Counted from the first letter of the stretch, positions 11,433-27,951 are shown. The stretch: DNA of 64,000 nucleotides from Eubacteriales bacterium (GCA_045658965.1 JAZOVZ010000106.1:3618-67617), one strand, 5' to 3'. The notes: a model not told the origin generated them from the sequence alone. Numbers and translations are program-made.

Positions 11433-12098
11433 ATTTTCACGCCGATAATTCTTTCATCAAATATATCAGCGGTCAAAAATAAGGCCATTGCAAGCAACCC
11501 GGAACGGTCCGCAAATGCCCTAATATTGATGCGCTTATTATATATCAAAGTGACTTTTCTGTCAAGCGACCTTCTCGGTCAAAACGGGGCTCTTTCGCGC
11601 GTTTTTCGGGCAAAATCGCCGTTCACCGTTTGTTCAAACATTCATATTTTCCGTTTTTTGCGCCATGCAATCTCTGTTGCATAACCTTGCAATTTGTCAA
11701 TTGTAATTTTTATTTACTCATTTTTGACTAATAATCGCCTTTTTCCGCGTCATTGTCGCCCATTTTTGTGCATTATTTGGCGTTTTGCGGGTCGTACGTC
11801 GCGTTAGTGTAAATTTTGTTTACCCTTTTGAAAAACTCGTTTATTCATTTTTTATGCATTTTAGGGTGTCATTCTTTGTAACTGTTGCACAATTTTGAGG
11901 GTCATTTTTTTACGTCTTGACATTTTGCACAAATTTAACGACATTTCCACGCAGCACCTCCCCGCACCCCCTGCTTTCTGCCTGCCGTTACCTTTTTTCT
12001 TGAAGCGCTTCCATTAATTCCCTTTTATTTTATCTTCGGGTGCACGTAGGTTTCCCTGCAATCTCCACACATACAAGCACCTATTTTTCCCTCCCCTC

Positions 12099-12127
12099 TT
12101 GCATATTTCGCGGCTTTGTGCTATACT
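12099..12127 (+). promoter_or_regulatory. Sigma-70-type promoter for the rlmI-like gene
   Basis: TTGCAT (12099-12104), 17-nt spacer, TGcTATACT extended -10 (12122-12127). The start codon is 28 nt downstream. Confidence 0.5.
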
Positions 12128-12154
12128 GATTGCAGTACGTAACCGGAGGTTTTT

Positions 12155-13384
12155 ATGCTATCTGAACTCTCTAAAATCACGATCACCGAAAAAGGCGAAA
12201 AAATGCTGCGCGGCGGGCACGTTTGGGTGTTTGCCGACGAGGCGATCTCGATAGACACGCCCGTTGCAGACGGCGATATTGCATACGTCTACTCCACCAA
12301 GGGCAGATATCTGGGCGCAGGCTTTTACAACAGCGCCTCCAAGATCCGCGTGCGCATCCTTTCGCGCAACGCAAACGATACTTTTGATCAAAAATTCTGG
12401 CAAAGACGGCTGGAATACGCAATTTCCTACCGCCGTAGCGTCATGAAGGGTGACGACTTTAAGTGCTGCAGACTTATCTTCGGTGAGGCGGACTCCTTCC
12501 CGGGGCTGACCGTGGACAGATTTGATAATCTCCTTGTAGTACAAGCACTTTCGCTCGGAATTGAGCGCATCAAGCACGTGCTGATCCCCACGCTTGTGGA
12601 CGTTTTGCGCAGTATGGGAGAGACCATTGACGGCGTATATGAAAGAAACGACGTCGCCATCCGCCAAAAGGAAGGCATGGAGGAATATACCGGCTGGTTC
12701 CAGGGCTTTTGCCCCGAAAACGACGCGTCCGGCTTGACGAAAATCGCAGAAAACGGCATTGTTTACGACGTGGACGTTATAAACGGACAGAAAACGGGCT
12801 TTTTCCTGGATCAGAAGTACAACCGCGCCTCCATTCACGCGGTCGCGAAGGGCAAACGCGTGCTGGATTGCTTTACGCACACGGGATCTTTTGCGCTCAA
12901 CGCTGCCATCGCGGGCGCTGCGCACGTCACCGCCGTGGATATTTCCGAGGAAGCTATCAATATGGCACGTAAAAACGCGCAAAATAACGGTCTTGCGGAC
13001 AGAATGGACTTTGTCTGCACCGACGTTTTCGAGCTTTTGACCGACATGGCAAACAAGAAAGTGCCTTGCGATTACGATTTCATCATCCTCGATCCGCCCG
13101 CTTTCACCAAGAGCCGCGATACGCTCAAGAACGCCATCAGAGGCTACCGTGAGATCAATTCCAAGGCAATGAAGCTGCTTCCCAGAGGCGGTTATCTTGC
13201 CACCTGCTCCTGCTCGCACTTCATGACAGACACCTATTTCAAGCAAATGCTGCACAACGCAGCCGAGGATGCAGGCGTTTCCCTGCGCCAGATCGAGGCG
13301 CGTCAGCAGTCCCCCGACCACCCGATTTTGTGGAACGTTCCCGAGACAGATTACCTGAAATTCTACATTTTCCAGATCGTTTAA
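12155..13384 (+). CDS. rlmI: Class I SAM-dependent rRNA (cytosine-C5) methyltransferase, RlmI/YwbD-like (PUA + MTase)
   Basis: 409 aa. Motifs GQKTGFFLDQKYNR, LDCFTHTGSFALNAA and IILDPPAF. The antisense ORF 12158..13321 is a shadow. Confidence 0.8.
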   Translation: MLSELSKITITEKGEKMLRGGHVWVFADEAISIDTPVADGDIAYVYSTKGRYLGAGFYNSASKIRVRILSRNANDTFDQKFWQRRLEYAISYRRSVMKGDDFKCCRLIFGEADSFPGLTVDRFDNLLVVQALSLGIERIKHVLIPTLVDVLRSMGETIDGVYERNDVAIRQKEGMEEYTGWFQGFCPENDASGLTKIAENGIVYDVDVINGQKTGFFLDQKYNRASIHAVAKGKRVLDCFTHTGSFALNAAIAGAAHVTAVDISEEAINMARKNAQNNGLADRMDFVCTDVFELLTDMANKKVPCDYDFIILDPPAFTKSRDTLKNAIRGYREINSKAMKLLPRGGYLATCSCSHFMTDTYFKQMLHNAAEDAGVSLRQIEARQQSPDHPILWNVPETDYLKFYIFQIV

Positions 13385-19577: not shown

Positions 19578-21389
19578 TTATTCCTTCGTAGGCAGCCAAA
19601 CCGAAATGCGTGCGTTTTGCTCATTCCAGTGCTTGCCGCACCATGCGTAGTCGGTCAGCAAAATTTGTCCCTCGTCGCTTTCCAGCACGAATCTCACCAT
19701 CTCACCGGGCGCGGGCTCGATTTGATCCAGCACCAGCTTACCCTCATTCTGCACGGGCGCAAAGGGCGCGTTGATGTCACCGGGCTCCTTTTTCTCGTCA
19801 CGTGCCAGCACCAGGCAGCCGTATACGTAAGCCTGCTTGCCGCCAAGCGTGACGCGCTTGACCTCGGGATGCAGAGAAAGCGTGATCACGTAGCCGTCCT
19901 GCCACGTGCAGCCAAGCTGATTGTAGCCCTTGACTGCCTCGGTCTGCTCGCCGCAAACCGTCAGCACGGGAGCTGTGCTCCACTCGGGCACGCGCAATTT
20001 CAGCGCGAACTGCTCGGGAGCGTCAAGACCAATCTTGATCTGCACCTCGCCCTCGCCCTCGTAATCGCCCGAAAGCGTAAAGGTGACCGTCTGTCCTGCA
20101 GGCGTGGTTGCCTGCACGCTACCGCCGTGATAACCGTTGAATACAAAGCCGTTCTCATAAGCAAGCACACCGATCAAGGGGAAGATCGCAGTGCCCGCCG
20201 CACCAATGCAAGCGCAGCAGCCGTAGTAGCCGCCCGAGGAGAACTTCTTAAAGCCGCCGATGCCAATGCCGCGGGGCTGGTAGACCAAGGGGCTGTAGCT
20301 GTCAAACGCCAAGCCGGGATACAGCTTGTTTTCCTCGCGGCTGAGCTGATCCAGACCAAACGCATTCAAACTGCCGTACAGCGCGTTGTACGCGGATTTT
20401 TCGATCTGGGAAGCGTACCATTCCTTGCCCGTCAAGCGCAGCAAGCGCTCAAGCAGACGCATCCACGTTACCGTCACGCAGGTCTCCTGCATGATGGCGT
20501 TGTCCTCCACCTGCACGGTCTGCATGACACCGGAGTGGTCAAACAGCTCGTGCGTGCAGCCTGCGCAGCCGATGATGGTAATATCGCTCGCCTCAACCGC
20601 GCGGACGAACTTTTCCACGATATGTAAGTAACGCTCCTCGCCCGTCACCTCGTAATACGCGAGTGCGCCCTCAAAATAGGACATCATTTCGTAAGCCTTG
20701 ACCTGCGGATACTGGTAAGGATAGATCTCGTCCGCCTCCGCAAGCTCCAAGAGGTTGCCACCGTGGCAGCCGCCCTGATCGAGGACGTACTTGCCAAAGT
20801 CCAGGAATTTCTGCTTGCCCGTCAGCTTGTAAAGCTCGATCACGGGCTCAAGAATGGTGCTGGAGTTGAGTCCCCCCCAAGCGGCAGAGGTATCAAGAAT
20901 CGACTTTTGCCCCTCGCCGTTGCCAAGATGCTTGATCAGATAGTCCACGTGCTTTTCCATGCAGTCGAGAATACGCACCTTGAACGCCTCATCACGGCAG
21001 ATACCGTAGAAATACAAGCTGCCAACGATGACGTATTTGCGCGCCCAGATATCCCAGCCGCCAAACTCGTGCGAGACGGGATAGGAGGCAATTCTGCCAA
21101 GAGAGTCCTGCGTGTCCAGCAGATCGGACACGGTCTTGTAAAGGATCTCATAAAGCTGCTCGTCGGGGGCGTAAGCATAGGTCAGACACGCGCCGCGCAT
21201 CATCTTGCCGTAGTATTCGCCTCTCCAGCCCCAGTCGCAAAAGTCGGGGCGTTCGACAAACACCTGCACGAATTTCTCCCAGCTCTCCTTGTTTTTGAGC
21301 TGCTTTTCCATAACAAATCGCGCGTGCGCATCGGCAACACCCGTGTAGCGCGCCGCACCTGCGGGGAGATAATTGTAAGCGTAATTCAT
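19578..21389 (-). CDS. Glycoside hydrolase family 127-like protein (DUF1680, beta-L-arabinofuranosidase type)
   Basis: Start placed at ATG 21389 (MNYAYNYLPAG) after AAAGGAG. Cys-rich catalytic region IIGCAGCTHELF...MQETCVTVTWMRL resembles the GH127 Zn/Cys site. Size is about 600 aa. Confidence 0.65.
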   Translation of the reverse strand: MNYAYNYLPAGAARYTGVADAHARFVMEKQLKNKESWEKFVQVFVERPDFCDWGWRGEYYGKMMRGACLTYAYAPDEQLYEILYKTVSDLLDTQDSLGRIASYPVSHEFGGWDIWARKYVIVGSLYFYGICRDEAFKVRILDCMEKHVDYLIKHLGNGEGQKSILDTSAAWGGLNSSTILEPVIELYKLTGKQKFLDFGKYVLDQGGCHGGNLLELAEADEIYPYQYPQVKAYEMMSYFEGALAYYEVTGEERYLHIVEKFVRAVEASDITIIGCAGCTHELFDHSGVMQTVQVEDNAIMQETCVTVTWMRLLERLLRLTGKEWYASQIEKSAYNALYGSLNAFGLDQLSREENKLYPGLAFDSYSPLVYQPRGIGIGGFKKFSSGGYYGCCACIGAAGTAIFPLIGVLAYENGFVFNGYHGGSVQATTPAGQTVTFTLSGDYEGEGEVQIKIGLDAPEQFALKLRVPEWSTAPVLTVCGEQTEAVKGYNQLGCTWQDGYVITLSLHPEVKRVTLGGKQAYVYGCLVLARDEKKEPGDINAPFAPVQNEGKLVLDQIEPAPGEMVRFVLESDEGQILLTDYAWCGKHWNEQNARISVWLPTKE

Positions 21390-21473
21390 AGTGGACTCCT
21401 TTCTGTATCTCAGGTCGGATTTTATGTTTGTAAAAATGGTTTCGGGTTCTATTGTTTTCGCGCGGTCACGCAT

Positions 21474-21622
21474 CCGCCCGTGTCATCCTGAGCGACTCCT
21501 CTTCCTCCGCTGTCATCCTCGAGCAAGTCCCTGTGCCTAGATTCTTCGCTGCGCTCGAGAATGACAGGCACAGGGACGCCGCGAAGGATCTCGGAGGAAG
21601 AGGCGTTGCGAAGGATCTCGGG
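21474..21622. repeat. Left arm of about 150-bp inverted repeat flanking the GIY-YIG gene
   Basis: Reverse complement of 21946-22099 with scattered mismatches. Contains GTCATCCTCGAGCAAG, ATTCTTCGCTGCGCTCGAGAATGAC and CGCGAAGGATCTC modules. It is itself internally palindromic. Confidence 0.8.
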
Positions 21623-21629
21623 CAATATG

Positions 21630-21926
21630 TTATGTAAACACACCGGGAAACAACTGATCGGTTAAATCCACCCAACCGGGATTCATTGATTCAACCAATT
21701 CATCCTTTTTGATTCGCAAAAGACCTTTCACTTGCTTTTCTCTTAAAATGGCATCCTTTATCCATTTGTAGCTTTCGTAATAGACCAGTTTATGAACGTG
21801 ATATTTTCTTGTGAATCCGTCAATCAGTTCATTTTTGTGTTCATACAATCGGCGCTGCAAATCATTTGTTACACCGACGTACATGACCCTATCGTTTTTG
21901 TTCGTTAATATGTAAACATAATACAT
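21630..21926 (-). CDS. GIY-YIG nuclease family protein (UPF0213/YhbQ-like, 98 aa)
   Basis: MYYVYILTNKNDRVMYVGVTNDLQRRLYEHKN is the classic GIY-YIG N-terminal signature. Confidence 0.85.
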   Translation of the reverse strand: MYYVYILTNKNDRVMYVGVTNDLQRRLYEHKNELIDGFTRKYHVHKLVYYESYKWIKDAILREKQVKGLLRIKKDELVESMNPGWVDLTDQLFPGVFT

Positions 21927-21945
21927 AAGCCAATCCTCATTTTGT

Positions 21946-22099
21946 CCGCCGAGATCCTTCGCGGCGCATCTTCCTCTGAGATCCTTCGCGGCGCCGCCCC
22001 GTTGTCATTCTTGAGCGCAGCGAAGAATCTCGGGGCGGCTTGCTCGAGGATGACAGCAGAGGAAGATGCTTGCTCGAGGATGACACGGCGGAGGGGCGG
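21946..22099. repeat. Right arm of about 150-bp inverted repeat flanking the GIY-YIG gene
   Basis: See the left arm. Together the arms delimit a roughly 626-bp cassette (21474-22099). Confidence 0.8.
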
Positions 22100-22164
22100 T
22101 CGAGCGAACATCAGCGCAATTCATGGTGTCGCTTCAAAGACACAAGACAAAAGACCAAGCCGTC

Positions 22165-22797
22165 TCAAAAATTTGCTTCTCCGTGTTTATCTATACCGGT
22201 CATGAAATCCTGCTTGGTAACAGTAATCTGTTTTTCGGAATTGTTTTTATCCATGCCGTACATGACAAGCTCGTTGCCTTGTATAACCGTTTTATCCAAC
22301 GAAACCAAGTCGCACATCTTTGAAACGTTCAAAAACAATTTCCTTTCATAATCAAACGCAAAGCATTCATACGGACATGCCCAATAACACCCTTCAAAGA
22401 CCAAGAGCTCATCAAGTTGCTTAACGTCAACCACGATAAACGACTCCTTGCCTTCAAGTACACAATTGGGGAAATACTCAAATTCCACAGACAGCGTATC
22501 AACATTGAGCAACGTAAATCCGTATAGCGTTTTTCTAAAACAGATAAAGCGCTGACCGTTTAAAACAACAGGATAAAAGTCATTTTCATAATCGTGTTCA
22601 TCGCAGCAATCACATGCATACGTGCAATCGCCATTTTTGAAAATCACGTGCGCTTTTTCTCTATAGCTATTTTGCGTGTTGGGCTCAAATATATCAATTT
22701 CTATTTCAACGTCAAAAACACGCTTTGATATATGTTCGGAAAAATCAAAAACGAAACCTTCGGAATATTCATGTATGTATTGATTTATCAAATCCAT
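22165..22797 (-). CDS. Hypothetical protein (210 aa, Cys-rich, low GC)
   Basis: Long ORF with lower GC than the flanks. No motif I can recognise. Confidence 0.55.
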   Translation of the reverse strand: MDLINQYIHEYSEGFVFDFSEHISKRVFDVEIEIDIFEPNTQNSYREKAHVIFKNGDCTYACDCCDEHDYENDFYPVVLNGQRFICFRKTLYGFTLLNVDTLSVEFEYFPNCVLEGKESFIVVDVKQLDELLVFEGCYWACPYECFAFDYERKLFLNVSKMCDLVSLDKTVIQGNELVMYGMDKNNSEKQITVTKQDFMTGIDKHGEANF

Positions 22798-22909
22798 GAC
22801 GGACTCCTTTCATTTTAAGGCGATATGATATGTATGTAACATAAATGTTTTCCGAAATCCAAAGTGATTGTAGGGGCGATCAGTGATCGCCCGCACACAG
22901 CGTTGGAAC

Positions 22910-23329
22910 TTATTTCCCAAATTTCTCAGCCAGAACGGCGATCACCAGCACAAGGATGCCAAACCCAACGATCATGCACACCTTGGTGATGGCGTCCCTT
23001 TTGTCCTGCGCCGCGTTTGCCCACGGCTTGTATTCCCTGATCTCCTCATCGATCAGTACGCGCCTGCCGAGCTTTTTTTGAATAAGCTTGTACACGCATT
23101 GCGTATCGTAATCGATCTCGTGATCGCAAAACGGGCATTTGAAATTGTATTCGGTCAGTTCCACACTGCCACCGTAATACGTGTTTCCTGATTTGCTTGC
23201 CCTGTGCCAACCGGGATCCCCCAGATGCAGCGTGCGCGTAATGGGAGTGTTTTTGTATTTGTTCCCGCATTTATGACAATAGAATTTGCCGAAAACCATC
23301 CCCATGGGGATAGAATGTGTTTTTCTCAT
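22910..23329 (-). CDS. Small zinc-ribbon protein with C-terminal TM anchor
   Basis: Start moved to ATG 23329 (MRKTHSIPMG), because the upstream part of the listed ORF runs through a palindromic repeat. Contains CHKCG ... CPFCDHE and a C-terminal hydrophobic helix VCMIVGFGILVLVIAVL. Confidence 0.55.
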   Translation of the reverse strand: MRKTHSIPMGMVFGKFYCHKCGNKYKNTPITRTLHLGDPGWHRASKSGNTYYGGSVELTEYNFKCPFCDHEIDYDTQCVYKLIQKKLGRRVLIDEEIREYKPWANAAQDKRDAITKVCMIVGFGILVLVIAVLAEKFGK

Positions 23330-23368
23330 AATGCAGTTCCTTTCCAAAGAATATTTTACACACGAACC

Positions 23369-23438
23369 GTAGGGCAGGGGCTTGCTCCTGCCGCGAATAT
23401 ATGTACACTTTTTCTGCGGGAGCAAGCCCCCGCCCTAC
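23369..23438. repeat. GTAGGG-type long palindrome
   Basis: GTAGGGCAGGGGCTTGCTCCTGC .. 21 nt .. GCGGGAGCAAGCCCCCGCCCTAC, with 2 mismatches between the arms. Confidence 0.8.
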
Positions 23439-23440
23439 AA

Positions 23441-23638
23441 TTACACTTTCGTCAGACACACGACAGATTCTACGTGTCCGGTACGTGGGAACATATCAAC
23501 AGGTGTAACCTTGCGCGCACCATCGCGCTCGTACCCAGCGTCAGATGCGTATCGGATGTATGGATCGCATGAAACGGCGCATCCGCACCAACGTGCAGAG
23601 ATATATGAAACAGTTACATGGGGACTTCTTCCCAACAC
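23441..23638 (-). pseudogene. Displaced 3' fragment of an rlmD-type methyltransferase gene
   Basis: The 65-aa ORF ends ...SCDPYIRYASDAGYERDGARKVTPVDMFPRTGHVESVVCLTKV. The intact gene at 25731 ends ...SCDPDTLARDCKWFRENGYEIGEVTPVDMFPRTGHVESVVCLTR. There is no N-terminal 390 aa. Confidence 0.85.
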
Positions 23639-23651
23639 AACTTGTTAAAAT

Positions 23652-25688
23652 TCATTCAAGTAATATAGGCATGACAGAGTCCCTTCGCAACCCTTTTTCA
23701 AGTACTTCGTTATTCCAATCCCTCAGTACATGATTGTCAAATAGCCTTTGCAATGCATTCACTCGTCTAGACAATGCATACGGGCTGTTCTTAATGTCTA
23801 CCGTTTCCAAAGTGGACAAAACAGGCTCAGAAGGAACCGCAGGCAACAACTCGCTTCCTCCACTTTCCAACAACTTTTGTTCCAAAATCGGATTATGGTC
23901 ATGCAACAATGAACGAATATCCGGATACGGTATTACCAATCCAAAGATAGGAGAGTTATAAAAAGTTATCGTTCCTTTTTCGACATTAAACATTATGTGA
24001 TTTAGAGAATCAATATCCACGATCGTTCCATGTATGGTTCCTGACCCGCCAATACTCCGTACATATTCAGCAACTTGCTCCTGTGCACGGCGCAAAGGCG
24101 ACAATGCTAACAAATACATCCTAACCATATCCAGAAAGCGCCTATTGTACATATCCAAATTTACAGTCTTATCAATTTTTTTAATACTGCCGCCATTGCA
24201 GATGTACATGCCCTTAGACGAGGTCAGAAAAAATCCATAATAACCTTGTTGCTTAATCATGATCAATTTAGCATCATATTTTTCCATCTGGTATTCCAGC
24301 GTTCCTGTCCCTAAAAAATTGGTATTCATGTAACGATAAAACTCTCTGAATTCTCCGAGAGTTATAGTACGATAACCATCGGGGTCCGAAGCGAACGGAT
24401 TTCTAGGTTTATAGATCGTGGCATGTTTAAAAGCAAATCTCTTGCTTTCATATCCAATCTGATTATCCGAAAAAATATAAGTGTTGTTTTCCCAATTATT
24501 ATAGAAATTCTTATGAGTATGTCCCGAAAAGAACACGCAATTTGACGGAACCTCACCAGAATCCAACCAATCGTATACTGGTGTGTGAGTGAGCACCACA
24601 AGCGTGGCATGACTTCTCCGTGCCATTGTTTGTGCCTTCCGAAAAGCTTTTATCCACCGATCTGAAAGTTGCTTCTCCTTCTCGGGGCATACGGCTTCTC
24701 CATAAATACAGTGGTTTGCATTGAAATCATCATTTTTTGCAGCATATCCAACCCCCCCAACGATAATAGCATTAGAATAGGATAACATCTGCAAGTCGAA
24801 CGACTCAGAGTTTTCTCCTTGATTGAGCGGTAATAATTCTTGTGTTTTTTCGTCTCTTTTCCAAGGTGCGTGGAATGAACCTAATGTAGTAACACCATCG
24901 TTCAAAAAGCGAATGCCTAACTCCTTTAATAGTTTAGAATAAGCATCGCTACATTCCTCAAATGTGGAAAAATCCCACATTTCATGGTTTCCCAATATAG
25001 CGTAGATGTATTGAGATGAACGGTGATCTTTATATTTTTCAGCCCATCCATAAGCAAGTCCTTGCTCTGTTTCACGTAGCGACCTATACAGTTCTCGTCT
25101 TCTCAGCACTTCCGTTATTATATATTTGGGAAGACTATTACCCGTGAGCATTTTCTCTGTAATATGTCCTCCCTTCAGCCGTTTGTTTTCCCATTTCTCA
25201 ATGATTTCATTACACTCGTGAAGCTCCTTTTCTATTGGAGCACGCAAGGCCATAATGGAATTATAAGAATCATCCACAATATTTTTCCAAGTCTGGATGA
25301 ATGCTGAATAGAAAGCTTTCGCAATCAAGAAACAAGATGCAATATCGCCCCCGAAAAAAACCACTGGAGATTTAAAGGCACGAATCTCGCTTTCAATATC
25401 TCCCGTCAACAATTTCCTCGCAACACTATCAATATAATCAACAATTTTCTCGTCCTGAACTCCTTGTCCATACGATGCCAAAATATGTTGATCCAAATGC
25501 AAATCGCTAATATAATAAATGCCAATATTATGCTGATTAAATTTGTTGTTTTTCTGCAAAAAATCAGGTAATGTCGTTTTTATCACAGACGGGGAGTGCA
25601 AAGAAACCTTGTCCGAATCTTCTTCACAAAGCAACTTGGGAAACATCGTGTTACTATTTAGGTTATAGCATTTTTCCCAAATACTCAT
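23652..25688 (-). CDS. Calcineurin-like metallophosphoesterase with inserted helical region and about 250-aa uncharacterised C-terminal domain (678 aa)
   Basis: Ordered metallophosphoesterase (MPE) motifs: ISDLHLD, GGDIAS, GNHEMWD, LTHTP, SGHTHKN. About 38% GC. A single gene lies between the duplicated rlmD 3' ends. Confidence 0.75.
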   Translation of the reverse strand: MSIWEKCYNLNSNTMFPKLLCEEDSDKVSLHSPSVIKTTLPDFLQKNNKFNQHNIGIYYISDLHLDQHILASYGQGVQDEKIVDYIDSVARKLLTGDIESEIRAFKSPVVFFGGDIASCFLIAKAFYSAFIQTWKNIVDDSYNSIMALRAPIEKELHECNEIIEKWENKRLKGGHITEKMLTGNSLPKYIITEVLRRRELYRSLRETEQGLAYGWAEKYKDHRSSQYIYAILGNHEMWDFSTFEECSDAYSKLLKELGIRFLNDGVTTLGSFHAPWKRDEKTQELLPLNQGENSESFDLQMLSYSNAIIVGGVGYAAKNDDFNANHCIYGEAVCPEKEKQLSDRWIKAFRKAQTMARRSHATLVVLTHTPVYDWLDSGEVPSNCVFFSGHTHKNFYNNWENNTYIFSDNQIGYESKRFAFKHATIYKPRNPFASDPDGYRTITLGEFREFYRYMNTNFLGTGTLEYQMEKYDAKLIMIKQQGYYGFFLTSSKGMYICNGGSIKKIDKTVNLDMYNRRFLDMVRMYLLALSPLRRAQEQVAEYVRSIGGSGTIHGTIVDIDSLNHIMFNVEKGTITFYNSPIFGLVIPYPDIRSLLHDHNPILEQKLLESGGSELLPAVPSEPVLSTLETVDIKNSPYALSRRVNALQRLFDNHVLRDWNNEVLEKGLRRDSVMPILLE

Positions 25689-25730
25689 ATCAAGCTCCTT
25701 TATGTAAAAATCCGACTTAATTTTATAAGA

Positions 25731-27107
25731 CTATCGCGTCAGACAAACGACAGATTCTACGTGTCCGGTACGTGGGAACATATCCACCGGTGTCACTTCC
25801 CCGATCTCGTATCCATTCTCCCTGAACCACTTGCAATCTCTTGCCAGCGTATCGGGGTCGCAGGAAACGTAGACCACGCGCGGGATGCCCAGTTCTGCAA
25901 AGCACTTGACAAGCGTCTCGGTGCTTCCCTTTCTTGGCGGGTCGATGACTGCCACGTCAGGGCGCGTGCCACCGCAAGCCGCCAGAATGACCTGTGCGTC
26001 GCCTGCGTCGTTACAAATAAAGGTTGCGTTTTCCACGCCGTTGCGCGCGGCATTCTCGCGTGCGCACTCCACCGCCTCGGGCACGATCTCAATGCCCACA
26101 AGGCTGCGCGCAAAACGCGCCATGGAAAGCCCGATGGTGCCCGTGCCGCAATACAGGTCGATCAGCACCTCGCCACCGCTCAAATTCGCCTTTTGGCGCG
26201 CCAAGCCGTACAGCAGCTCCGCGCCCTCGCGGTTGACCTGATAGAACGAGCCGGGCGAAATCTTAAAGGTCAAGCCGCAAAGCTCGTCCTCGATATATGC
26301 CTGTCCCCAAACCGTGCGGTATTCCTTACCCAGCACGACGTTGGTATTTTTCTCATTGAAATTAAGCACCACGCCCACGATCTGCGAAAATTGAGCTGTG
26401 ACTTTATCGGCAAACTCGCGCTCTGCGGGCATACCCTTGCCGTTGAGCACCAAGCACAGCATGATCTGTGCCGAGCCCTTGCTCTGCCGCAGATAAATAT
26501 GGCGCAAAAGCCCCTTGCCTGTGGTTTCGTCGTACGCCTTAATGCCCTTTGCATCGCAAAACGCGCACACGAACGCCACGATCTCGCCAAAGATCGCGGG
26601 CTGCAAGGCGCACTTATCCGCTTTGACCAAATTGTGCGTTTTGGCGGCAAAAAAGCCTGCCTCCATACCGCTCTTGCCCTGCTTGACGGGATATTGCCCC
26701 TTGTTGCGGTAGCCGCTCGTCACGCCTGTCGTGCGCACGGGCGCAACCTGCACGTCGTCCAGCCCCACCTTACGAAAGGCGTTTTGCACGTAGGCGCGTT
26801 TGCTCTCCAGCTCGTGCGCATAGGTCACGTAGCGGTACACGCAGCCACCGCACGCGTCGGGTGCGTGACAAAAGACCGCGCTGTCGCGGATATCCGAGGC
26901 GCGTTCAATATGCTGCAGCTTGCCCACGGCATAGGTAGCGGTATCCTTGATGATGCTCACGCGCACCAAGTCACCCGTGACCGCGCCACGCACGAACAAA
27001 ACCTTGCCCTGCACGTGTCCGACACCGCAGCCAAGGTTATTGATCTCGGTGATCTCCACCGTATATTCACTCCCCTTGGGGAGCAAAACTCTCTCTTTTT
27101 TGTCCAT
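25731..27107 (-). CDS. rlmD: 23S rRNA (uracil-C5)-methyltransferase RlmD/RumA family (TRAM + Fe-S + MTase)
   Basis: 458 aa. N-terminal TRAM-like domain, a Cys cluster (CHAPDACGGCVYRY), the SAM motif DLYCGTGTIG, and C-terminal VDMFPRTGHVE. Confidence 0.85.
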   Translation of the reverse strand: MDKKERVLLPKGSEYTVEITEINNLGCGVGHVQGKVLFVRGAVTGDLVRVSIIKDTATYAVGKLQHIERASDIRDSAVFCHAPDACGGCVYRYVTYAHELESKRAYVQNAFRKVGLDDVQVAPVRTTGVTSGYRNKGQYPVKQGKSGMEAGFFAAKTHNLVKADKCALQPAIFGEIVAFVCAFCDAKGIKAYDETTGKGLLRHIYLRQSKGSAQIMLCLVLNGKGMPAEREFADKVTAQFSQIVGVVLNFNEKNTNVVLGKEYRTVWGQAYIEDELCGLTFKISPGSFYQVNREGAELLYGLARQKANLSGGEVLIDLYCGTGTIGLSMARFARSLVGIEIVPEAVECARENAARNGVENATFICNDAGDAQVILAACGGTRPDVAVIDPPRKGSTETLVKCFAELGIPRVVYVSCDPDTLARDCKWFRENGYEIGEVTPVDMFPRTGHVESVVCLTR

Positions 27108-27793
27108 CAGACGTAAAATTCCTTCATATCTTCAAGGCGCAGGCAGCCGAGCAACCCGCCGTCCTTGACGCCGCAGTTGACGTTGACCGCACCGTTGCCG
27201 AAATAGATCTTGCCGCTGCCGCCATTCTCCTCGGTCATGGGCACGTGGCCGACCACCACGGTCTTATTCTTAAACAGACGCTTGGAAAGATCCAGCGGCT
27301 CTGTCATGAACGTCTCGGGCTCGCAATCATCCAGCTTCATGCCGGGGGTGTAGTCCGCAATGCCCGCGTGCACCAGGATATAATCCTCGCCATCTACGCG
27401 TACCTGCTCGTAAAGTGCCAGATCGGACAGATAATCGATCACGCCCTCGCGCATCTCGCTATCCAGAGCGCGGAAGCCGTCCAAGGTGCTTTGACCGCCG
27501 TTCTTGACCCACTCCTGCATGTCAGCAATAAAGTCCGCATCGGGAGTCTGCTCGCCCGACAGCATTTTTTCAAAGCCCGCAAGCATGCGCAGCGCGAGAA
27601 AATCGTGCTCACCCGCGATCGCGTATACGTTATAACGCACGGAAAGGTCGCCGATCAGCTCCATACTTTGCTCACCGTAGTCCACAATGTCGCCAAGCAC
27701 GTACAGAATGTCGGTTTCTTTGAGTCCGATCTTGTCGACCAGCTCCTTGAATTTATCGTAATTGCCATGTAAATCGGATACAACGTAAGTCAT
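27107..27793 (-). CDS. Metallophosphoesterase (PrpE/ApaH-like Ser/Thr phosphatase family)
   Basis: Start at ATG 27793 after GGAGG. Contains MTYVVSDLHGNYDKF, LGDIVDYG and VVGHVP. TGATG overlap with rlmD. Confidence 0.75.
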   Translation of the reverse strand: MTYVVSDLHGNYDKFKELVDKIGLKETDILYVLGDIVDYGEQSMELIGDLSVRYNVYAIAGEHDFLALRMLAGFEKMLSGEQTPDADFIADMQEWVKNGGQSTLDGFRALDSEMREGVIDYLSDLALYEQVRVDGEDYILVHAGIADYTPGMKLDDCEPETFMTEPLDLSKRLFKNKTVVVGHVPMTEENGGSGKIYFGNGAVNVNCGVKDGGLLGCLRLEDMKEFYV

Positions 27794-27951
27794 GATAACC
27801 TCCATGCCGCCTTCGGCGGCTCAAATAGTGATGGAAACTTCACCGCGGAGCTTTGCTCCGAAAATGGGTTGGGTCCCATTTTCAGGTGAAGTTTAGGCGT
27901 GAATGGTTAAGTAAAAAGGAATATGCCGTGAACTTTCACGCTCAACTCCTT

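Follow-up and report, generated by a model that had tools for sequence, protein, structure and literature searches.

The stretch of DNA analyzed here, referred to as the window, is 64,000 nt from a Eubacteriales bacterium (GCA_045658965.1 JAZOVZ010000106.1:3618-67617), and coordinates are window positions unless a related locus is named. Immediately downstream from the rlmD gene it contains an insert in which a single open reading frame (ORF), encoding a metallophosphoesterase of 678 residues that we call MPE678 (23652..25688), is bracketed by two copies of the rlmD 3' end. Every gene in the rlmD neighbourhood is oriented on the minus strand, and this strand also applies to the parts and repeat copies of these genes given below; no strand is assigned to a palindromic hairpin. 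For comparison we used 16 rlmD loci (numbered L001 and onwards) from metagenome-assembled genomes of ruminant-gut Clostridia/Oscillospiraceae, while independent data came from Logan contigs (k=31) of two bovine-gut metagenome runs, which belong to different studies and one of which is denoted X2.

The rlmD gene (25731..27107) is intact and encodes a 23S rRNA (uracil-C5)-methyltransferase of 458 residues. It scores 357 bits against the equivalog hidden Markov model TIGR00479 (cut-off 183.6, E 1.4e-106), carries the Pfam domains TRAM and tRNA_U5-meth_tr, and is 84-97% identical to rlmD of the relatives. The last 60 nt of the gene (copy 1, 25737..25796) recur 2287 nt downstream as copy 2 (23450..23509, codons ~438-458; repeat family D1, 93%), with 56 of the 60 positions identical. 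The initial annotation of the window had noticed a recurrence of the last 47 nt with one mismatch, and this inner core (25738-25784 and 23451-23497) is indeed identical at 46 of 47 positions, within a repeat that proves to be somewhat longer. It is clear that a repeat of this length is beyond chance, and the insert is thus flanked by direct repeats of the 3' end of its target gene, 60 nt at 93% identity, as are islands that enter at a bacterial attachment site (attB).

Copy 2 and the DNA downstream from it (23514 to 22791) are colinear with the uninterrupted order of rlmD end, hairpin, and orf171 in the relatives L001 and L015, a stretch of 184 nt matching L001 at 92% and one of 737 nt matching L015 at 86%, and we therefore take copy 2 to be the resident end of rlmD. 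The hairpin is a GC-rich 23-nt inverted repeat resembling repetitive extragenic palindromic (REP) elements (23369..23438; pair I1, 91% complementary), and it comes after the native rlmD stop codon in both L001 and L015. GC-rich palindromes of the type GTAGGGCGGGGGCTTGCTCCCGC, found in the window at 23369-23438 and 22869-22897, are also present in intergenic positions elsewhere in L006, L007, and L012, and look like REP-type elements or terminators.

Joined to copy 2, on the side facing MPE678, is a remnant of a second metallophosphoesterase gene (23510..23630), whose full-length counterpart of 274 residues is called MPE274 here. The remnant shows 82% DNA identity to L010 11541-11663, a segment comprising the ribosome-binding site and the first ~40 codons of an ORF (11552-12376, 274 residues, PF00149 E 1.7e-11) that occupies the matching rlmD hotspot in this relative. 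In the window the ATG at 23619-23617 is followed by a TAA at codon 2, one nucleotide has been deleted, and the reading frame is truncated after ~40 codons, and we therefore consider it a pseudogene. Its GC content of 52.9% is host-like. The rlmD homology of copy 2 ends at ~23509-23514, and at the joint 23509/23510 the remnant and the rlmD end have an AGG/AAGG microhomology of 3-4 nt in common. The initial annotation had read 23441-23638 as a rlmD copy continuing into a diverged fragment of the gene, but positions 23510-23630 are the 5' end of MPE274 seen in another frame. BLASTP of the ORF 23441-23638 against the RlmD C-terminus does return an alignment, in which only the last ~20 residues are good; the likeness of its 'SCDP' motif to RlmD is a coincidence, the intact gene of L010 giving 'VSCDS' in the same wrong frame.

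Pieces of the MPE678 gene were found in both bovine-gut runs with 0-4 differences per piece, and a contig from X2 spans 23460-23646, including the junction 23509/23510, with 0 differences. The duplication is real, and the assembly artefact that the initial annotation had allowed for is ruled out by the exact recovery of the junction in a run from another study. Fusion of two genomes by the assembler through the conserved rlmD end might have been suspected, as the rlmD end and the hairpin are common to many co-occurring genomes (depth 125-277 versus ~5) and ambiguous graph paths through the repeat are possible, one X2 contig passing from 23460 back to 25746 over a shared stretch of 38 nt. The two sides of the junction between remnant and rlmD end, however, have only 3-4 nt in common, which places it outside the reach of k-mer sharing, and the stop codon and frameshift in the remnant are the decay expected after a real event, making such a chimera very improbable. 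The X2 contig just mentioned starts in the MPE274 remnant, crosses the repeat core, and enters the start of MPE678, and its 23460/25746 join is the one expected of a 2287-bp circle or of a tandem copy, or it may be a graph artefact; we do not regard it as proving a circular form, since the 38 nt in common are longer than the Logan k of 31.

MPE678 is the sole ORF between the repeat copies. It has a GC content of 39.2% (38.7% at third codon positions, GC3), compared to 58.0% (GC3 72.3%) for rlmD, and it is present in none of the 16 related rlmD loci, so that the picture of a horizontally acquired, low-GC, single-gene insert given by the initial annotation holds. The spacer between the rlmD stop codon and MPE678 is AT-rich and only 42 nt long (25689..25730, 26% GC) and contains an AAAGGAG ribosome-binding site. 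Scanning this spacer for promoters and terminators revealed no promoter-like or terminator-like site, and MPE678 is therefore probably transcribed by read-through from the rlmD operon. An Rfam scan of 21000-27500 gave no match.

The protein matches the calcineurin-like phosphoesterase family PF00149 with 26.2 bits (cut-off 21.5, E 1.3e-5), and all five motifs of the family (DxH, GD, GNH(E/D), H, and GHxH) are present as D62-H64, G114-D115, G233-N234-H235-E236, H368, and G389-H390-T391-H392. Residues D62, H64, G114, D115, G233, N234, H235, H368, G389, H390, and H392, the metal ligands among them, are invariant in alignments of 42 close homologs and of 63 diverse, more distant members of the family; the closest homolog is 46% identical. 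MPE678 is predicted to be a cytoplasmic binuclear-metal phosphoesterase with all catalytic residues intact. An AlphaFold2 (AF2) model of the full-length protein, based on the 42-sequence alignment, has a predicted local distance difference test score (pLDDT) of 88.4 and a predicted template modelling score (pTM) of 0.86, and is laid out as a phosphoesterase core with an alpha/beta sandwich, a helical hairpin insert, and a C-terminal domain. When this model was searched with Foldseek, the best matches were the purple acid phosphatases 7ov2 and 1qhw (pig and rat; probability 0.99 and 0.93), with template modelling scores (TM-scores) that are low owing to the inserts in MPE678. The hairpin, a coiled coil of residues ~120-222 (25023..25331) placed between motifs II and III, consists of the AF2 helices H120-170 and H188-207 with pLDDT >90. 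It may serve oligomerisation, and relatives of ~1000 residues, which share the phosphoesterase and the C-terminal module, have no counterpart to it.

The C-terminal domain (residues 432-678, 23655..24395) is specific for the family and is modelled by AF2 with a pLDDT of 90.3 when taken alone. Its invariant features are CNGG (497-500), GGxGxIHGTIVDID..NH (547-564), Y577, Y637, and S640. No sequence match to the domain was found in Pfam, NCBIfam, or the PDB, and Foldseek searches gave nothing significant, neither in the PDB (best E 0.28, TM <0.2) nor in BFVD (best E 0.08). The initial annotation had pointed out the calcineurin-like motifs, an inserted helical segment, and a C-terminal domain that could not be placed, and all three descriptions agree with our results. 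It had also called the domain sensor-like, and here the data point elsewhere. An exhaustive phmmer search with the domain recovered 906 clusters at 50% identity with E<=1e-3 (652 with E<=1e-10), and PF00149 was also present in 61 of 63 diverse members sampled. Since nearly all of these proteins carry the domain fused to the same phosphoesterase, it appears to be an obligate partner of a phosphoesterase subfamily and not a sensor swapped between effectors. A few members contain in addition DUF4116, DUF4379 zinc-finger, or NUMOD-like domains.

Residues ~616-669 of the terminal helices (window ~23680-23840) gave a weak and non-significant profile match to the BRCT domain of PARP-1 (2cok), with E 0.034 using the 63-sequence profile and 0.23 using the 42-sequence profile, and no structural match backs it. 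Searches of PDB sequences with the two MPE678 profiles otherwise returned coiled-coil noise and weak purple acid phosphatase matches, and no PUA-Cal chain. Three unrelated genes of the metallophosphoesterase type lie within 4.5 kb (27107-27805, 23652-25688, and 23510-23630), which is probably a coincidence; MPE274 and MPE678, considered as possible paralogs, had no significant similarity in a direct comparison. The first of the three, MPE232, is a core phosphoesterase of 232 residues that overlaps the start of rlmD and is present in every relative whose contig reaches that far.

The insert is located in a gap between rlmD, its upstream anchor, and a gene for a glycoside hydrolase of the GH127 family (19578..21473; PF07944, E 2e-28), and this gap is a variable hotspot rich in defence genes in the ruminant-gut Clostridia/Oscillospiraceae clade. 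All 16 relatives keep orf233, orf251, MPE232, and rlmD on the upstream side, and GH127 follows on the downstream side where the contig allows (12 relatives). The usual hotspot gene ahead of GH127 in most relatives is orf171 (22910..23329; 139 residues counted from M33, with a zinc ribbon, a transmembrane segment, and a weak CpXC match), for which tblastn found matches at 52-94% identity in 12 of the related loci, restricted to the N-terminus in two cases. In L015 the gap holds orf171 only, and in L010 the order is rlmD, MPE274, and orf171. A gene for a 23S-IVS four-helix bundle and one for a small membrane protein are found in the gaps of L010 and L004, and L002 has a helix-turn-helix gene together with a type II methyltransferase and restriction enzyme (PADLOC MTase_II E 3e-47, REase_II E 3e-27). 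Between rlmD and GH127 the window has no ORFs other than MPE678, orf171, orf210, and one for a 98-residue GIY-YIG protein, and as stated in the initial annotation there is no integrase among them.

The cargo of several relatives takes the form of cassettes, each followed by a conserved arm of ~85 nt and a 26-nt core that repeats the rlmD end, CACGTnGAnnnTGTyGTnTGTCTGAC, and inserted right after the GTCTGAC of the rlmD end. The arm is made up of two sub-repeats of ~40 nt (TTTGAGACyTTTwrGG..ACCC). The units measure 0.35-2.4 kb, mostly carry one or two genes, and are stacked as arrays downstream from rlmD with no integrase in view; they were noted at L003 5335, L004 12944, L008 12248 and 14669, L010 11422, L012 9837, L016 11716, and in L045-L055. 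Eleven further metagenome contigs carry the unit of arm and 26-nt core, and the cargo includes a TIR-methyltransferase fusion, a PDC-S11 (DUF4268) candidate, and a peptidase S51. No match to the arm motif was found in IMG/VR. The cassette repeat was considered as an attC-like site and rejected, since it forms no hairpin (RNAalifold on 16 units, -1.4 kcal/mol, 0 compensatory pairs). The units resemble integron cassettes in being short, co-oriented, mostly single-gene, repeat-ended, and stacked at a fixed site, but differ in that their repeat has no attC-type hairpin or covariation and that intI is absent; nor is such a repeat found in the window insert. The arrays could be an accretion similar to that of cis-mobilizable elements (CIMEs) or an undescribed cassette platform, and they are the most unusual thing encountered here, although they are mostly outside the window.

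The window itself has a degenerate and internally deleted trace of a cassette end, with arm and rlmD-end core, after orf210 (22100..22170; alignments A4 and A5). The trace is followed by the cassette start 'GAATTGCGCTGA'; the sequence 'CCATGAATTGCGCTGA', likewise located after the trace, matches the start of the four-helix-bundle cassette located right after rlmD in L004 and L010. The gene orf210 (22165..22797) is a low-GC (37%) cassette gene without an assigned function, found directly after rlmD in L008, L012, and L018, and had no Pfam, PADLOC, or PHROG match. Further towards GH127, the GIY-YIG gene (21630-21926, 36% GC) is flanked by repeats of ~80 nt (21512-21594 and 21979-22054); the unit of gene and repeats is also present in L006, and at least the gene in L010, which would suit a small GIY-YIG element that is mobile.

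The genomic contexts of MPE678 homologs elsewhere are diverse. Individual homologs were found beside an HD_5 protein, after a Schlafen-type helicase and a MazG-like gene, overlapping an MmeI-type restriction-modification (R-M) system in a region resembling an integrative and conjugative element (ICE), inside an element with relaxase, NikA, and giant-helicase genes, and beside AbiTii and an Hxs radical-SAM cluster. Members of the family are also present on 13 IMG/VR contigs, where the neighbours include YhcG/DUF1016 nucleases (PADLOC candidate PDC-S02, three times), a GH25 endolysin, Mob_Pre, and an integrase fragment. These contexts look like the footprint of an accessory or conflict gene of mobile elements. 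In two loci (L030 6597-7988 and L031 1633-3024) an ORF of 463 residues without a Pfam match is found 13 nt upstream from the MPE678 homolog; both sites belong to one relaxase-bearing element, in which this ORF could be an operon partner. A called gene of 463 residues without a Pfam match is also found nearby in L024, on the other strand.

We consider it probable that the locus is a homology-anchored recombination scar carrying a putative conflict gene of mobile elements, and a history in two steps is the most economical account of its structure. In the first step a lineage resembling L010, with the order rlmD, MPE274, orf171, would have gained the foreign MPE678 between the rlmD stop codon and the ribosome-binding site of MPE274. 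In the second step a piece of DNA running from the rlmD 3' end across MPE678 and ~120 nt into MPE274 would have entered a genome resembling L001 and L015, with the order rlmD, hairpin, orf171. One crossover would have been homologous, inside rlmD, and the other illegitimate, at an AGG microhomology between codon ~40 of MPE274 and codon ~438 of rlmD; Campbell-type integration of a circle sharing ~60 nt with rlmD would lead to an identical arrangement. The outcome would be an intact rlmD, MPE678, a truncated MPE274 that has since decayed, a duplicated 60-nt end of the resident rlmD, the hairpin, and orf171, as is found in the window, and the foreign composition of MPE678 next to the host-like composition of the MPE274 remnant speaks for this scheme. 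Homology-facilitated illegitimate recombination, in which one homologous anchor is combined with a microhomology joint, is known from naturally transformable bacteria. The locus has its hallmarks, with a shared rlmD tract, a far joint of 3-4 nt, foreign DNA in between, and a duplicated segment of the recipient, but at rlmD the process can be deduced from the end product only. Of the interpretation given in the initial annotation, the part that saw an insertion scar in the duplicated rlmD end has stood up well, and the part that saw an island bringing along a partial, diverged version of its target gene has not, as what had seemed diverged rlmD is the MPE274 remnant and the distal copy belongs to the resident rlmD.

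The rlmD gene itself offers a hint of the homologous crossover. In a comparison with its nearest relative, L015, mismatches number 1-5 per 50 nt as far as ~nt 1300 and then rise to 22 in the last 77 nt, which is suggestive of, though not decisive for, a recombination breakpoint just upstream of copy 1. When 25731-27107 is compared with L001-L016 the gene is a patchwork, the nearest relative shifting along it with 70-98% identity per 120-nt window, and this indicates frequent homologous exchange in the population. Several points weigh against the two-step history. The mosaic nature of rlmD throughout the population is what makes the breakpoint suggestive and not decisive. The two 47-nt cores are closer to each other (46/47) than either is to L001 or L015, as would also be expected from gene conversion or from a site-specific core. 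A donor arranged as rlmD-MPE678-MPE274 did not turn up, and the nearest MPE678 homolog is only 46% identical, which leaves the first step hypothetical. Finally, the scheme gives no account of the tight entry of a bare ORF, with flanks of 42 nt (5') and ~20 nt (3').

The most serious competitor for the origin of the insert is a decayed site-specific element, a prophage, an ICE, an integrative and mobilizable element, or something similar to a CIME, whose tyrosine integrase used the rlmD end as attB and was later lost. The 47-60-nt repeats would then be attL and attR, with cores identical at 46 of 47 positions, and the cassette arrays of the relatives and of the 11 metagenome contigs all enter at the same point, after GTCTGAC; moreover, rlmD/rum is a known attachment-site hotspot for phage and ICE accretion (PMC13651849). 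The insert in the window, however, does not have the 85-nt arm, copy 2 exceeds the 26-nt cassette core by 34 nt of genuine rlmD sequence, the hotspot has no integrase, and copy 2 abuts the truncated resident gene at a microhomology of 3-4 nt, which is the signature of illegitimate joining. We therefore regard a site-specific origin as unlikely, and membership of MPE678 in the cassette family of the relatives was rejected, as both the arm and the common left-end motifs are absent. A housekeeping phosphoesterase that normally accompanies rlmD would fit the co-orientation and probable co-transcription of MPE678 with rlmD and the presence of the core phosphoesterase MPE232 just upstream of rlmD in all relatives. 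The initial annotation had envisaged such a family, with conserved synteny next to rlmD, as a result that would overturn its reading, but the gene is missing from all 16 related loci, has a GC3 of 39% versus 72% for rlmD, has no NCBIfam model, and has homologs without conserved synteny, which leaves this explanation with a practically negligible probability compared to the recombination scar.

As outlined in PMC13651849, which cites Pavlovic 2004 and Bellanger 2011, integrase-less CIMEs accrete in tandem at the 3' end of a gene in the ICESt1 family. As in such elements and in defence hotspots between core genes, the rlmD locus has conserved flanks around strain-variable cargo (R-M, TIR, and PDC candidates), and the arrays of the relatives are bounded by direct repeats of the target-gene 3' end. 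The cassettes of the relatives are, at 0.35-2.4 kb, far smaller than the CIMEs of that description, no integrase was found, and the window insert differs in having an illegitimate microhomology joint instead of a conserved arm.

With respect to function, we lean slightly towards a role of MPE678 in conflict with phages or mobile elements in the broad sense. In the mechanism that we envisage, MPE678 would be a stand-alone defence effector that hydrolyses phosphoester bonds in nucleic acids or nucleotides once the C-terminal domain is triggered, its activity or assembly being governed by the C-terminal domain and the coiled coil. A function against phages is plausible, and moderate circumstantial evidence comes from the company that the family keeps, since the hotspot of the relatives holds type II R-M, the TIR-methyltransferase fusion, and PDC-S11, and homologs are found on prophages and ICEs beside MmeI, AbiTii, the Schlafen-type helicase with its MazG-like gene, and YhcG/PDC-S02. 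There is also a precedent in the calcineurin-CE effector of PUA-Cal-HAD, a validated anti-phage effector that depletes deoxynucleoside triphosphates (bioRxiv 10.64898/2026.01.15.699771). That MPE678 is a defence gene in the strict sense we nevertheless hold to be possible with less than even odds. The PADLOC analysis proposed in the initial annotation came out negative, no family of PADLOC-DB v2.0 matching MPE678 at E<=0.1, and searches of NCBIfam and PHROGs gave nothing or a weak generic phosphoesterase match, so that the databases offer no PADLOC, NCBIfam, or informative PHROG match in favour of the proposed role. Among the homolog contexts inspected there is neither a conserved partner gene nor conserved synteny, and several homologs are found among housekeeping genes, one of them between recX and rplL, all of which likewise speak against it.

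A different role in the same conflicts is that of a counter-defence or fitness factor of a mobile element, now stranded in the chromosome, which might act as a nuclease damaging host DNA or as a phosphodiesterase destroying immune signalling nucleotides. Many members of the family are on prophage-like IMG/VR contigs near endolysin, Mob_Pre, relaxase, or integrase genes, and the phage metallophosphoesterase Gp48 degrades or damages host DNA and thereby evades immunity (PMC12287305). On the other hand, MPE678 in the window is chromosomal and intact and has the orientation of a housekeeping operon, and R-M, AbiTii, and YhcG neighbours fit defence islands equally well. We would assign counter-defence a low probability, clearly below that of defence; on the basis of sequence alone the two are inseparable.

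In its structure the locus belongs to a known type, whereas MPE678 and its homologs form an uncharacterised variant family of metallophosphoesterases. MPE678 shares the five motifs and the predicted alpha/beta sandwich core with calcineurin-like metallophosphoesterases (PF00149) and purple acid phosphatases, but its sequence similarity to solved phosphoesterases is insignificant, and it differs from them by the coiled-coil hairpin of 100 residues and the obligate C-terminal domain of 250 residues. The Mre11/SbcD nuclease is another metallophosphoesterase to be compared, but no Rad50/SbcC partner was found beside MPE678 or among the neighbours of its homologs, and the Foldseek match to Mre11-Rad50 has a probability of 0.05. 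The calcineurin-CE clade of conflict effectors reportedly goes back to Nicastro et al. 2023. Like MPE678, PUA-Cal-HAD has a metallophosphoesterase in a context of defence and mobile elements that is fused to a non-catalytic domain, with a proposed action on nucleotides or nucleic acids. MPE678 has, however, no PUA domain or HAD partner, and its architecture of coiled-coil insert and new C-terminal domain differs from that described for PUA-Cal-HAD.

A far-reaching interpretation would combine two claims, namely that the MPE678 family is a new single-gene system for immunity or against mobile elements, in which the novel C-terminal domain with its motif IHGxIVDID..NH gates degradation of nucleic acids or nucleotides, and that the rlmD 3' end of ruminant-gut Oscillospiraceae is a dedicated platform for cassette capture that shuffles defence genes in arrays of 85-nt arms and 26-nt cores without hairpins or a local integrase. 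We find it improbable that both hold together. Should the function of MPE678 turn out to be mundane, the insert would be an ordinary strain-variable islet only. The locus is also a clean natural example of the transfer of a foreign gene between strains by way of a short homologous anchor and a microhomology joint, with a datable scar, and the analysis points to a defence-rich rlmD hotspot with an unusual cassette architecture in the relatives. If a role in defence or counter-defence is true, MPE678 would represent a widespread single-gene system that comprises ~900 clusters (50% identity), has a regulatory domain of a new type, and is missed by PADLOC, and such a system would extend the repertoire of phage-bacterium conflict in gut Firmicutes.

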